From: Thermoanaerobaculia bacterium
GTDB taxonomy: Bacteria; Acidobacteriota; Thermoanaerobaculia; Gp7-AA8
DNA: 64,000 nt
NCBI GenBank assembly: GCA_035688915.1
Contig: DASSMK010000346.1
Span: forward strand, 25,389 to 89,388
Reading direction: 5' to 3'
Of the stretch, positions 6,380-10,618 are shown in pieces. The number at the start of each line of letters is the position of its first letter. The stretch's first letter is position 1. The notes below the pieces were generated by a model that was not told where the DNA came from, ran no database searches, and saw nothing but the letters and a program-made list of their open reading frames with translations. Made by a program: the position numbers and the translations under genes.

Positions 6380-8953
6380 TCACCGTGGGGGTGCATACCG
6401 AAACCAGCGCGATGGCTCTTCAAGGTCGTAGTACTGCGTGATCGCCTCGACGATTTGCTGTGCCTCGGTAGCAACACTTCGCACGACGTCGTCATCCACG
6501 CCAGCATCCACGAGATCGAGCGCGGCGAACGCCCTATGTAGACGCGCGTGCGCGCGCACGGGCTGCCAGACAGCTGTCGAGAAACTATCGAATGTCCGTC
6601 GCGCGCCCTCGAGATCTCCGAGCGTCAGCTCCGCGAGTATCGCGGTCCGGCGCGCCAGCGCCGACTGCGTGCCGCCAATCTCAACGAGCGCAGAGCGCGC
6701 GGCGTCGGGATCGCCGGTCGTGGCGTAGCATAGAGCGAGATGCGCTCGAAATTCCGCGCCAATTTCCCTTTCCCCCACCCGATTTTGCGGTCGTTCCTTG
6801 ATCACGGGAAGCAGCGTCGCAATAGCTTCCTCCCATCGCTCGTGCGCGATCGCCAGACGCGCATCGAAAAGCAACATCCATCGCCGGTCCCACAACGACG
6901 ACTTCCGGTGCGCATGAATCGCCGCCGCCTCGCGGTGGTACTTCACAGCAGGCTCCCATGCACCGATGTCGGCGCAGAAGTGAGCGGCGCGCTCAACGGA
7001 CTGGAGGTAGCGGAGGTCGCGGTACGGCAGCTTCCGTCGGAGCTGGACCTCGTGCTGCAACAACAGTCCGTACGAACGAATATCGAGCTCGGACAGCTTC
7101 CCCACGAGACTCTGCAGCGCAAGCAGCGCAACGTACGCAGGGGCAGATTCCGAGAACGTGATCGCCTCTTGGTATGGCCGCTGATCGTTGAAAAGCTTTG
7201 CCTTTCGGTAATTGTGGACCCAACCGATCTCCACGGCGCGCGGGTCGTGACTTCGAGGAACCGCCCAGACGTACGCCTGGAACGCCTCATCGTTGAACGG
7301 TGAGCCATCGTGGAGCCATGAGGCAAACGCATGCACGAGCTGGACGAGCAGCTCGTGCACGATGGGGTCTTTCGAGGGGACAGCCGCCCACTTGACCGCC
7401 GCGAGAAAGTTCGCGCGCTCACGCAGCACTTCCTCGTGACACTCTCGGCGGATCTGTTCGTCGGGATCATCGCTCGGCCATTCCCACTCGTGATAGCCGT
7501 CGAGCGATCGGTGCCATGCAGCGATGTTCGCATGCGCCACGGCCGTCGCACGTGCCGCGAAGTAGGCGGCGTGCCGGCGTGCCGCATCCCACGCCGTCGT
7601 GTCTTCCTCGGCGAGCATTCGGGCGTACAGGCGGACGAGGTCGTGCAGGTGGTAGCGATCGGTCGTCGGAGAGGGCAGGACCAGCGAACATCGAACGAGG
7701 TTGCGAAGGGCACGCGGATGCGGGATGTCCGCGACGGCGCACGCTGCCTCCGCGGAGAAGTCCGCAGGAAACACGCCGAGGCAGCGAAACATCTGCGCCG
7801 ATGCTGGATCGAGACGGCGGAAACTCACGCTGAGACTCGTAGCGACGTCGAGGGTTAAATCACTAGCGAGCGATAGCGCGGCGAGGCGGGTGCGCTCGTC
7901 CTCCAACTCTCGGGCATACGCCGCGAACGAGACGTCGGGATGCTGCTCCAGCACGGCACCTGCGGCGCGGATCGCGAGCGGCAGGTAGCCACACCGCGGG
8001 GCTATCTGCGCCGCCGCGTCGCTCCCATCGGGAGGTGGCTCTCGCTGCGTGATCCGAATGAGGAGCGCACGTGCGTCCGTTGGCTCGAGCACCGCGAGAT
8101 TCCACCAGACGGCGCCGGCAATGTGGAACCGTTCGCGCGTCGTCACCAAGAAGACGGCACCGGGCGGAGGGCGCAGGTGTGCGAACACGGCCGGATCTTG
8201 GATGTCGTCGAAGAGCACGACACCGCGTTTTCCGGCGATGGCTTGGTAGAACTGCGGCAACAGGGTCTCGCCACCGGTCGCGCCGAGCTGCCCGAGGAGA
8301 TCGCCGAGGATCCTGTCTTGCGATGCGGGGCTGGCGTTGTCGCCGCGCGTCGCCGAGAACAGCGCGTAATCTGAAAACTCGTTCGCGAGGCCGTGCGCGA
8401 TGGCGATCGCAATCGATGTCTTCCCCACCCCACCCATGCCGTGAAACGCGAGCACGACCCCCTCGGTGGCGGCATACGCGACCCGCACGGCGTCAGTAAC
8501 GTCCGCGTCGCGACCAGCGAAATCTCGGATCAGCGGCGGGATCGCAGAACCGCGCGAGGTCGTTGGACCAACTGGCGACGTCCGAGTACTCCTGCTGTCC
8601 GCGAACGGCACGGGCTCAACCAGGGCATCGAGGTAGATCGCCGTCCGGCCGTGGTCGCCGCGGTCGACGTGCCACGGTCCGAACACCGCGACTAGATAGG
8701 GGCGACCGGACCCTTCCACGGTGACAGGGCGCGGCGCATCGATCGACCCGCAGAACTTGCGGAGATCGTCGCGCAAGCGGTTCAGCGTCATGCGCACGTT
8801 CTCGGGCGATTCACCGAGGAGCGTCTGCAGACCTTCCCTCGACCACGCGCGTGGGTGCGCCGTCTGACGACCCCGCTCGATCCACTGGGCGACGTCTTCG
8901 ACGAGCTGGTCCGTGAGCGCCTCGTAGGCGCCTGCCTTCTTGCGCCGCTTCAT
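6380..8953 (-). CDS. SARP/AfsR-like STAND regulator: OmpR-type winged-helix DNA-binding region, NB-ARC ATPase, TPR repeats
   Basis: N-terminal stretch RMTLNRLRDDLRK...VTVEGSGRPYLVAVFGPW resembles an OmpR-family wHTH. Walker A is GMGGVGKTSIAIAIA, Walker B is VVLFDDIQD, then LVTTRERF and a GLPLA-like GYLPLAIRAAG motif. The C-terminal about 350 aa is helical with TPR-like repeats. Confidence 0.75.
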   Translation of the reverse strand: MKRRKKAGAYEALTDQLVEDVAQWIERGRQTAHPRAWSREGLQTLLGESPENVRMTLNRLRDDLRKFCGSIDAPRPVTVEGSGRPYLVAVFGPWHVDRGDHGRTAIYLDALVEPVPFADSRSTRTSPVGPTTSRGSAIPPLIRDFAGRDADVTDAVRVAYAATEGVVLAFHGMGGVGKTSIAIAIAHGLANEFSDYALFSATRGDNASPASQDRILGDLLGQLGATGGETLLPQFYQAIAGKRGVVLFDDIQDPAVFAHLRPPPGAVFLVTTRERFHIAGAVWWNLAVLEPTDARALLIRITQREPPPDGSDAAAQIAPRCGYLPLAIRAAGAVLEQHPDVSFAAYARELEDERTRLAALSLASDLTLDVATSLSVSFRRLDPASAQMFRCLGVFPADFSAEAACAVADIPHPRALRNLVRCSLVLPSPTTDRYHLHDLVRLYARMLAEEDTTAWDAARRHAAYFAARATAVAHANIAAWHRSLDGYHEWEWPSDDPDEQIRRECHEEVLRERANFLAAVKWAAVPSKDPIVHELLVQLVHAFASWLHDGSPFNDEAFQAYVWAVPRSHDPRAVEIGWVHNYRKAKLFNDQRPYQEAITFSESAPAYVALLALQSLVGKLSELDIRSYGLLLQHEVQLRRKLPYRDLRYLQSVERAAHFCADIGAWEPAVKYHREAAAIHAHRKSSLWDRRWMLLFDARLAIAHERWEEAIATLLPVIKERPQNRVGEREIGAEFRAHLALCYATTGDPDAARSALVEIGGTQSALARRTAILAELTLGDLEGARRTFDSFSTAVWQPVRAHARLHRAFAALDLVDAGVDDDVVRSVATEAQQIVEAITQYYDLEEPSRWFRYAPPR

Positions 8954-9166
8954 GTCGCGGAACCGCCGGCGGAAGTCCCGTATGGCGTCCGCTGCGGCCG
9001 CGGAGTCCGGTGCAGGCGGCCGCTCGTTTTCCGCGTCGTCCCTAATGTTCGCCTCGTGTTCTTCGCGTTCGCCTCAGCTCATGCGCCAAGGCCCACGCGC
9101 GGCCGATGGTGCAAACACGCCCACGGGGCGAATTCACTCGCGGCGGCTCGCGCGCACAGTTCAAGC

Positions 9167-9190
9167 GAGACGGTTCGCAACAACCGTCTC
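9167..9190. promoter_or_regulatory. inverted repeat GAGACGGTT-CGCAAC-AACCGTCTC in the divergent intergenic region
   Basis: A perfect 9-bp arm hairpin or operator candidate about 65 bp upstream of the 9255 start. It sits in the 300-bp gap between the divergent SARP-like gene and the 9255 gene. Confidence 0.35.
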
Positions 9191-9254
9191 ACTTCGGCTG
9201 ACTGGGGATTCCCCCAGCGCGCCGGCCCGTCCGCCAAAGGAGAACTAACCTCCC

Positions 9255-9494
9255 ATGACAGGCGAACATTCGTACGTTACCCCTCCCGCTTCCTGCCGTA
9301 AAGATGTCCCTGTGGCCATCCTCGCCGGGACGGACCTCGAGCTCACGCCGTCGCGCCCCTACCTGCACGTGACGGAGAGCGCCGGCATCGTCCAGCTCAG
9401 CGGCGGGATGTGGACGGTGCGGTTTCATCCCACGCCGCGGGACGTCGCCGGACGCGACTCAGCGGCGACGGCCCTCGTAGGGGCCGTAAGATGA
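9255..9494 (+). CDS. small hypothetical protein (79 aa)
   Basis: AAGGAG lies 11 nt upstream of the ATG. The stop overlaps the next start in ATGA. Confidence 0.55.
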   Translation: MTGEHSYVTPPASCRKDVPVAILAGTDLELTPSRPYLHVTESAGIVQLSGGMWTVRFHPTPRDVAGRDSAATALVGAVR

Positions 9495-10618
9495 GCGCGC
9501 GGCGTTCCATCTCGACCGCGCGACGCAATGGCACACAGGGCGATCGAACGGCGGTTGACAGCTACCGCCTGACACTCCCGCGCACGACGCCGGCAGTCAG
9601 CAGCGGGGGGCCGACCGCCGCCCTCCTCGGTCGGTATGCGGCCGAGCCGACCGGGAACGCGGCCGTTTTCGCGCACGCGCTCGTGGATACGATCGAGAGC
9701 GACCCAGATGTGCTCCGCGACGTGCTCCTCGCGACCGCCGATCGGCGCGACCCGGCCGTGCGCGCGCGACGCGCGCACGTGTGCGAGGTCACATCGAAGG
9801 CACTCGCCCGCTGCTACGCGCAGTTGTTTGCCGATCCGGACGGGCACGCCATTCTCGATGCTGAACGCACAAGAAATGAGCTCGGCCTAACGCTGGCCGC
9901 AACAGCTCGCACGCACGTGGTCGAGCGCGCGATCACGCGGTTGTCCGACTTGGTACGCGAGTGCCGGGATCCGGCATTTCGGACGGCGCGACAGCGACGC
10001 CGACGGGGCATCTTTCGCCGACCTGGCGATGGACTCCCGCTCTTTCAGCCGGCGCAGCCCGTCGGATGCACGGGTGCGTTTTACGGCGAGCGCGACGCGT
10101 TGGAGTGGCGGTTTATCGCGCTTGAGCCGCTGCACCTCGTCGACGCGGACGGCGAGAAGTACGTGGACCTTGTCCCATCATCCGGTGCCAACGCGGAGGT
10201 AGGCGTGATCCCGTTCGACGTGTTCTGCACGTGGCGAAACATCTCGTTGTCCCGAAGGTACAAAGCTGGCGAACGCAAGGTTCCGCGCGACGGGCGCCGC
10301 GTCGTCCGCCAGGACGAACCGATCGTCGGCTTGCACGAAGACGCGTTTGGGCGGCTTATGGTGGATCTTCGCCTCCACTTGCTCGACGAGATCGCGCGGC
10401 GCACAGGCGCGTGGAGCGCCGCCGCACACGGGGCGAAGATGGACCGCGCCGCGGCGCGCGAAGCTACGAAGATGCCCACGAGTTCCGTGACCGGCCCGCT
10501 TACGCGGACCGAGCGTTTCCTGGAGCAACTTCGGCGCGAGGGGGCGGACGTCGAACACCTCAGAACGATGTGGAACGCGCAGGTCGCGGAAGAGCGGCGC
10601 CTGGGGATCTACCGGTGA
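9491..10618 (+). CDS. hypothetical protein (375 aa)
   Basis: ORF 9410..10618 with the start moved to Met28 (ATGA overlap with the upstream stop). No recognisable motifs. Confidence 0.5.
   Translation: MSARRSISTARRNGTQGDRTAVDSYRLTLPRTTPAVSSGGPTAALLGRYAAEPTGNAAVFAHALVDTIESDPDVLRDVLLATADRRDPAVRARRAHVCEVTSKALARCYAQLFADPDGHAILDAERTRNELGLTLAATARTHVVERAITRLSDLVRECRDPAFRTARQRRRRGIFRRPGDGLPLFQPAQPVGCTGAFYGERDALEWRFIALEPLHLVDADGEKYVDLVPSSGANAEVGVIPFDVFCTWRNISLSRRYKAGERKVPRDGRRVVRQDEPIVGLHEDAFGRLMVDLRLHLLDEIARRTGAWSAAAHGAKMDRAAAREATKMPTSSVTGPLTRTERFLEQLRREGADVEHLRTMWNAQVAEERRLGIYR

Follow-up and report, generated by a model that had tools for sequence, protein, structure and literature searches.

Bacterial NB-ARC/TPR proteins of the STAND class are modular switches that share one layout, in which an N-terminal output domain is followed by a nucleotide-binding oligomerisation module (NOD) and by C-terminal repeats, with the N-terminal module setting the role of the protein, for instance in transcription, NADase activity or protease recruitment. 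In AfsR, the SARP-NOD-TPR global regulator of Streptomyces, this module combines a winged helix-turn-helix (wHTH) with a BTAD domain; SARPs bind heptameric direct repeats that are spaced 11 (or 22) nt apart and overlap the -35 element of their target promoters. We analysed a 64-kb window of DNA, with a G+C content of about 65%, from a 100.8-kb contig of a Thermoanaerobaculia (Acidobacteriota) metagenome-assembled genome (MAG), focusing on a minus-strand gene at 6380-8953. An initial annotation had read its product as a SARP/AfsR-like regulator of wHTH, NB-ARC and TPR domains, divergent from two uncharacterised genes and adjacent to an Ssp-like operon that it could regulate, the divergent genes being the other possible target. 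We find a STAND ATPase whose N-terminal domain has almost no relatives. On sequence grounds the SARP annotation should be dropped, and by gene content it appears to stand apart from the neighbouring Ssp system. We tentatively propose that it controls the divergent gene pair.

The open reading frame (ORF), including its stop codon, encodes 857 residues, with a G+C content of 0.71, 0.49 and 0.75 at codon positions one, two and three. A MAG protein from Thermoanaerobaculia bacterium that NCBI names only 'NB-ARC domain-containing protein' matches its product at 100% identity. Scored by codon-usage log-odds, for which 15 confident genes of the window served as the training set, the frame reaches 0.29 bit per codon, and residues 1-54, which begin the N-terminal domain, carry a strong coding signature at 0.39. 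The three ORFs called in the initial annotation, namely this gene and two plus-strand frames facing it (9255-9494 and 9491-10618), were recovered here with coordinates that agree to within one base.

Residues 129-463 (7565-8569, minus strand) form the NOD together with a winged-helix lid. The Pfam NB-ARC family matches residues 167-355 (E 7e-11, 42 bits against a cut-off of 23.5), and residues 117-463 align with residues 268-629 of AfsR (PDB 8k60, E 1e-37). The NCBIfam AfsR model is matched over positions 282-619 (E 1.5e-46), with a score of 159 bits where the equivalog cut-off is 1430. The Walker A motif, GMGGVGKT, occurs at residues 172-179, the Walker B motif, VVLFDD, at 245-250 and the sensor TTR at 271-273; further downstream, GYLPLA at 322-327 supplies the GxP of ARC1, and LHD at 436-438 is the MHD-like motif of ARC2. 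In an alignment of 116 sequences, residues G175, G177, K178 and D249 are invariant or nearly so, and H437 and D438 are nearly invariant. An AlphaFold2 (AF2) model built from the same alignment has a predicted local distance difference test (pLDDT) score above 90 across residues 140-480. With Foldseek, its top match is the STAND-TPR protein 6mfv (E 1.6e-11), followed by matches that include Avs3 (4e-7), Apaf-1 and plant resistosome NLRs. The Pfam match, the AfsR-type NOD and the full set of intact switch motifs bear out the STAND/NB-ARC call, and the protein is securely assigned as an NB-ARC (AP-ATPase-type) STAND ATPase. For the NOD the AfsR likeness was also rightly drawn, as the nucleotide-binding module is closest to AfsR-type proteins.

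The C-terminal region, residues 464-857 (6383-7564, minus strand), is all-helical and presumably the sensor. AF2 places about 18 consecutive helices within residues 497-852, with pLDDT values of 45-90. The only Pfam match to a canonical TPR was TPR_19, at 23.8 bits and thus under its 25-bit cut-off. Of the TPR assignment made earlier, the helical repeats hold in the model and the canonical TPR does not; the region should rather be read as predicted TPR-like helical repeats. Homologues of the protein cover just 35-50% of the 857-residue query, essentially the NOD. Among the 119 nearest NOD relatives, a manual count of Pfam lists gave some 65 with an N-terminal SARP module and some 23 with an XRE-type HTH, and roughly three quarters of this clade are built as an N-terminal DNA binder followed by NOD and repeats.

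The N-terminal domain, residues 1-128 (8570-8953, minus strand), matches no family: Pfam, NCBIfam, PADLOC and PHROGs gave no usable match. Residues 1-135 are basic, with an isoelectric point (pI) of 9.6. Whether the domain was modelled alone or within the full-length protein, AF2 predicted the same order of elements, with helices at residues 2-30, 39-46 and 50-70 followed by a β-hairpin at 76-87, beyond which lies a conserved segment, GRPYLVA...GPWHxDRGD...TAI. The pLDDT of the N-terminus is low, about 40 for the domain alone and 40-73 inside the full-length model. In a phmmer search of 1.84 billion representative proteins, residues 1-135 retrieved only themselves and one 119-residue fragment from a soil read catalogue (SRR5690348), which is 48% identical over residues 55-128 and keeps GRPYLVA, GPWHxDRGD and TAIxL. 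No second locus emerged when collections of metagenome and genome contigs were scanned with degenerate patterns drawn from the N-terminal alignment. The N-termini of 25 of the nearest NOD relatives, which are uncharacterised or of TIR or EAD type, showed no similarity to the domain (phmmer E > 0.7, hhalign P > 0.07), and profile and pairwise comparisons with XRE-type N-termini were likewise non-significant.

Two plus-strand genes diverge from the STAND gene. The first, at 9255-9494, encodes 79 residues and is annotated by NCBI with exactly these limits as a hypothetical protein (HET7436883.1). Its ATG at 9255 is preceded at a distance of 8 nt by AAGGAG, and its frame, though the best of the six, scores only 0.03 bit per codon, giving weak coding support. 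As a side observation, this AAGGAG ribosome-binding site can pair with a CCUCC just before the ATG. The second gene, at 9491-10618, encodes 375 residues, with an ATG that overlaps the stop codon of the first (ATGA). Its codon-position G+C and codon usage are typical of the genome, and its frame scores 0.27 bit per codon. The start of this gene is ambiguous: NCBI uses a GTG at 9683, giving 311 residues in place of the 375 that follow from the ATG at 9491; the 64 codons between the two starts score positively, at 0.18 bit per codon. The 375-residue protein is arginine-rich (14%), with a pI of 9.8, and a search of 5.8 billion proteins returned its NCBI entry and no homologue besides; the 79-residue protein is a singleton cluster. 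Neither matched Pfam, NCBIfam, PADLOC or PHROGs, and no paralogues of the orphan proteins were found within the window. We also considered an adaptor arrangement of the EAD kind, which would need the N-terminus of the STAND protein to be shared with a neighbouring protein, and rejected it because neither neighbour resembles that N-terminus.

These features raise the question of whether the three genes are decaying or non-functional cargo, in which the STAND gene would be intact but idle and the two smaller ORFs spurious or pseudogenised. That all are singletons in very large databases would suit this explanation, as would the near-zero codon log-odds of the 79-residue ORF and the disagreement between NCBI and the present analysis over the start of the 375-residue gene. 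Against it stand the long unbroken frames with genome-typical codon-position G+C and codon usage, the preservation of every catalytic and switch motif of the NB-ARC module, and the presence of a Shine-Dalgarno sequence and ATGA coupling. Moreover, specific motifs of the N-terminal region are kept in a fragment that is only 48% identical, which argues for purifying selection on that region. We regard decay as quite unlikely.

The STAND gene and the divergent pair are separated by 301 bp (8954-9254). The inverted repeat noted there in the initial annotation, at 9167-9190, is present; it reads GAGACGGTT-N6-AACCGTCTC, is perfect over 9 bp and extends to arms of 13 nt with one mismatch (9163-9194). 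When the region was shuffled, a perfect hairpin of at least 9 bp arose in 2.4% of cases, and the 64-kb window holds 12 comparable hairpins, equivalent to about 0.06 expected per 301 bp, so the palindrome is unusual but not compelling. It lies within a larger self-complementary element of 73 nt (9150-9222), composed of outer GCGCGC stems, the repeat with 13-bp arms and a GGGGA/TCCCC palindrome, that spans the interval 33-105 nt before the ATG at 9255. Compared with shuffles, the RNA fold of this element has a z-score of -5.5 on both strands, and the other 197 nt of the intergenic region are unremarkable (z = -0.26). Rfam held no match to it. Since both strands fold equally well, the element is not assignable to RNA over DNA; from its sequence it may be an operator, possibly of two adjacent palindromes, or a leader-RNA structure.

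Two copies of a direct repeat, GTTCGCCTC, lie upstream of this element on the plus strand (9046-9075), 20 nt apart with starts at 9047 and 9067, and an inverted 11-nt copy occurs at 9260-9270, inside the start of the 79-residue ORF. Exact copies of TGTTCGCCT are found in the 64 kb only at 9046 (plus) and 9260 (minus), with a one-mismatch copy at 9066. For the three-copy motif GTTCGCCT, 12.5% of shuffles reach an 8-mer in three copies. The only periodic repeats in the region are the two copies of GTTCGCCTC, whose 20-nt spacing differs from the 11- or 22-nt pattern of SARP sites, and two copies of GCGGCCGC at a spacing of 22 nt; neither goes beyond chance. We regard the GTTCGCCTC repeats as a weak operator candidate.

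The explanation that we favour, with confidence short of even, is that the orphan STAND gene and the two singleton genes are independent cargo of an integrase-bearing island, in which the N-terminal domain binds DNA and controls the operon of the 79- and 375-residue proteins. Three observations lead us to a regulator. Of the 119 nearest relatives of the NOD, some three in four have a SARP or XRE module for DNA binding at the N-terminus; the N-terminal domain of the present protein is basic and is predicted to fold as helix-helix-helix-hairpin; and the genes diverge around a structured palindromic element. In addition, the best local profile alignment with SARP N-termini, though non-significant, falls on their recognition helix. 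Regulation of the pair at 9255-10618 by the STAND protein is a reasonable hypothesis. We infer DNA binding, its target and the activating signal by the following scheme. A ligand would bind the C-terminal repeats and lift autoinhibition, ADP would be swapped for ATP, and the NOD would oligomerise. The N-terminal domains, thereby clustered, would bind the shared intergenic DNA, for which the palindrome at 9163-9194 and the GTTCGCCTC repeats are candidate sites. The divergent 79/375-residue operon would then be switched on, and possibly the promoter of the STAND gene itself.

Several results weigh against this proposal. The predicted order of three helices and a hairpin is compatible with a winged helix without being evidence for one; helices of 29 and 21 residues exceed the lengths canonical for that fold, and the confidence of AF2 at the N-terminus is too low for the model to be interpreted. 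A Foldseek search of the PDB with this low-confidence model returned no match, and neither did a phmmer search of the N-terminus against all PDB sequences or a BLASTP comparison with hand-entered sequences of the PhoB and OmpR effector domains. The profile search for an N-terminal wHTH that the initial annotation had called for gave no significant match. At E<=10, the sole Pfam entry for residues 1-154 was HTH_71, at a non-significant E of 0.11. Aligned by hhalign with a profile of 62 SARP N-termini, the best E value was 0.14, over 16 columns and with a probability below 1%. The domain has a single relative, itself a fragment, for comparison. The DNA motifs are only marginally above chance, and a consensus scan of the 301-bp region found no sigma-70-like promoter, nor an intrinsic terminator. 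Lastly, the defence-island setting, with its CHAT proteases, PLD nuclease and Mrr-AAA protein, fits an immune, NLR-like sensor equally well.

The same searches bear on whether the protein could be a SARP at all. Trans_reg_C (PF00486) and BTAD (PF03704) matched neither the full protein at E<=0.01 nor residues 1-154 at E<=10, and the AfsR model and the PDB chains align only after the SARP module. The P-loop lies at residue 172, as opposed to about 290-340 in the 62 SARP-type relatives, and with some 128 residues before the NOD there is no room for a wHTH and a BTAD. The SARP claim thus fails, and on sequence the label is not supported. A true SARP/AfsR regulator could still be imagined if its OmpR-type wHTH and BTAD had diverged past sequence detection. 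The NOD is about 34-37% identical to that of AfsR, and to the eye LNRLRDDLRKF...TVEGSGRPYLV is similar to the recognition helix and wing found in OmpR and SARP proteins; hhalign picks the same helix, its 16-column alignment pairing residues 52-67 (NVRMTLNRLRDDLRKF) with the SARP recognition helix (LRxxL). The SARP module of AfsR, however, occupies about 270 residues before the NOD, where only about 128 are available here, and neither the family models, nor hhalign at the probability given above, nor the comparison with PhoB and OmpR recovered it. We consider such a diverged SARP highly improbable. As an observation in its own right, LNRLRDDLRKF...PVTVEGSGRPYLV looks by eye like an OmpR/PhoB recognition helix and wing, and this is probably what the earlier reader saw.

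The surroundings of the STAND gene are, by gene content, a mobile defence or conflict island. To the left of the gene, two tyrosine recombinases of the Phage_integrase family are encoded on the minus strand (892-1746 and 4939-5586), which suggests that an integrative element carries the region as cargo. A plus-strand ORF of up to 308 residues without a family match (5419-6345) converges on the STAND gene, with its 5' part overlapping the second integrase. To the right, beyond the Ssp genes, lie two proteins resembling single-stranded DNA-binding proteins (22251-22802 and 22944-23504), a PLD-family nuclease (23569-25020), a 1235-residue protein with Mrr_cat and AAA_22 domains (26497-30204), a RepB-type primase (30685-31527), a 1093-residue CHAT protease (36581-39862) and a 1308-residue protein combining CHAT with TPRs (45020-48946). 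No tRNA genes and no Rfam families were found across the window.

In such a setting the STAND protein might instead be an immune sensor in the style of Avs or bNACHT proteins, whose repeats would sense a protein of a phage or mobile element, whose NOD would oligomerise and whose N-terminus would serve as effector or adaptor, leading to abortive infection; the N-terminus could possibly recruit or activate the 79- and 375-residue products as toxic effectors. The island suits such a sensor, being flanked by integrases and rich in conflict genes, among them Ssp, the PLD nuclease, the Mrr_cat-AAA protein and the two CHAT proteases, of which one has TPRs. Arms-race evolution would be expected to yield N-terminal and sensor regions as extremely divergent as these, and neighbours that are singletons. 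In some near relatives of the NOD, a TIR, EAD or cyclase domain takes the N-terminal place of the HTH, and Avs3, plant resistosomes and Apaf-1 are among the proteins returned by the structure search. Yet none of the PADLOC defence models hits the STAND protein or its neighbours (E<=0.01). The N-terminus is small, at about 128 residues, and searches at E<=10 gave it no signature of a nuclease, TIR, protease or EAD domain. Its dissimilarity to the 79- and 375-residue proteins is contrary to an adaptor pairing, and the majority of close NOD relatives have the build of a transcription factor. We judge an immune sensor of this kind, the main rival to the regulator, possible, if somewhat doubtful. 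More specifically, the STAND protein and its two singleton neighbours could together constitute an undescribed NLR-like anti-phage module, with an output domain and effectors that lack known relatives, in which the products of the neighbours would be activated directly or infection would trigger transcription of a toxic operon; we think this composite unlikely.

Ssp is a defence system based on DNA phosphorothioation. The adjacent Ssp-like operon, also reported in the initial annotation, is confirmed by PADLOC, which identified SspA (20015-21307), SspB (19122-20018), SspC (15703-19233) and SspD (14895-15827) with E values from 1e-79 to 1e-249. The unit runs past SspD into two further minus-strand genes (10640-14879) that overlap by 4 bp and encode a 783-residue HATPase protein and then a 653-residue protein. 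The former carries two ATPase domains of the GHKL type: residues 115-217 match HATPase_c_3, and residues 667-767 match an HATPase_c of the kind found in histidine kinases. The latter has no Pfam or PDB match and about 30 full-length homologues at 39-51% identity. A pair of this kind, an HATPase of about 780 residues with a partner of about 640, adjoins SspABCD in six other independent loci. Five of these are metagenomic and the sixth belongs to Devosia honganensis, where the HATPase gene is called at just 332 residues; across these loci the pair occurs in three orientations relative to SspABCD. The PADLOC models for SspE, SspF, SspG and SspH do not match the pair, which accompanies SspABCD in place of SspE or SspFGH. 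From this association we propose it as a candidate for an uncharacterised sensing or restriction partner of Ssp. Judged by gene content and conserved neighbourhood, Ssp is a self-contained six-gene unit at 10640-21307, on whose 3' end the 375-residue gene converges across a gap of 21 bp.

The primary idea of the initial annotation, that the STAND protein activates transcription of the SspABCD operon, draws on proximity, with 1.7 kb between the STAND gene and the 3' end of the Ssp unit, and on the many NOD relatives that are transcription factors. In the six other loci the Ssp unit occurs with variable gene order and without an NB-ARC gene within 10 kb. In this window some 12 kb, including two genes on the opposite strand, separate the STAND gene from the ssp promoter region. 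The STAND intergenic region and the sequence upstream of sspA (21251-21500) share no word of at least 9 nt, fewer than shuffles give, and neither the 9-mer half-site nor GTTCGCCT has an exact copy near sspA. The PADLOC Ssp models match none of the STAND, 79- and 375-residue proteins, and the literature searched on Ssp, Dnd and BREX neighbourhoods describes no such STAND regulator and no relevant STAND or histidine-kinase partner of Ssp. The absence of a STAND neighbour in the six loci and of a shared word of at least 9 nt leaves regulation of the Ssp operon unsupported, and we consider it very unlikely; by these comparisons the STAND protein is neither a component nor a dedicated regulator of the adjacent system.

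Two further observations concern the Ssp unit. A second inverted repeat that is perfect over 9 bp, GGATAGCGG-N16-CCGCTATCC, was seen by eye at 21433-21466, within the 171 bp that precede sspA. It lies downstream of a small minus-strand ORF rich in Cys (about 21479-21811), and its sequence is unrelated to that of the repeat at 9167-9190. In addition, a JGI metagenome protein, P0124, on a contig of 1188 bp, is a fragment 92% identical to the 653-residue protein. This indicates that a close relative of the MAG has been sampled elsewhere, and that assembly might hold the STAND locus.

The outcome of this analysis is mostly corrective, in that the protein appears to be neither a SARP nor a part or regulator of Ssp. 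Should it be functional, the STAND repertoire would gain a new output, with an output domain and partner genes that sit in a mobile defence island and are almost without relatives. The worldwide record of one sequence and one fragment gives no comparative leverage on it, and the HATPase protein and its partner of about 640 residues beside SspABCD are the better and more tractable lead in this neighbourhood.

Among described systems, AfsR (PDB 8k60 and 8jke) shares with the present protein the NOD with its winged-helix lid and the helical repeats that follow the NOD. It differs in that its SARP module, a wHTH and BTAD of about 270 residues, is replaced here by an unrelated orphan domain of about 128, and in that the C-terminal repeats here are not recognisable TPRs. 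The settings differ as well, since the host is an Acidobacteriota MAG and not an actinomycete, and the gene lies in a mobile defence island and not in a biosynthetic cluster. XRE-HTH/NB-ARC/TPR proteins and other NB-ARC-TPR STANDs, with EAD7, TIR or cyclase N-termini, belong to the same NOD clade at 30-39% NOD identity; they share the general layout of bacterial NB-ARC-TPR STANDs, but the N-terminal domain found here resembles none of theirs. Avs proteins, NLR-type sensors and the archaeal STAND-TPR protein 6mfv are related through the common STAND fold and domain order. Unlike Avs and NLR sensors, the protein matches none of the Avs1-5 and bNACHT models of PADLOC 2.0 and has no recognisable effector domain. 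Its NOD is of the NB-ARC/AfsR type and not of the Avs type, whereas the defence-island setting fits these immune sensors.

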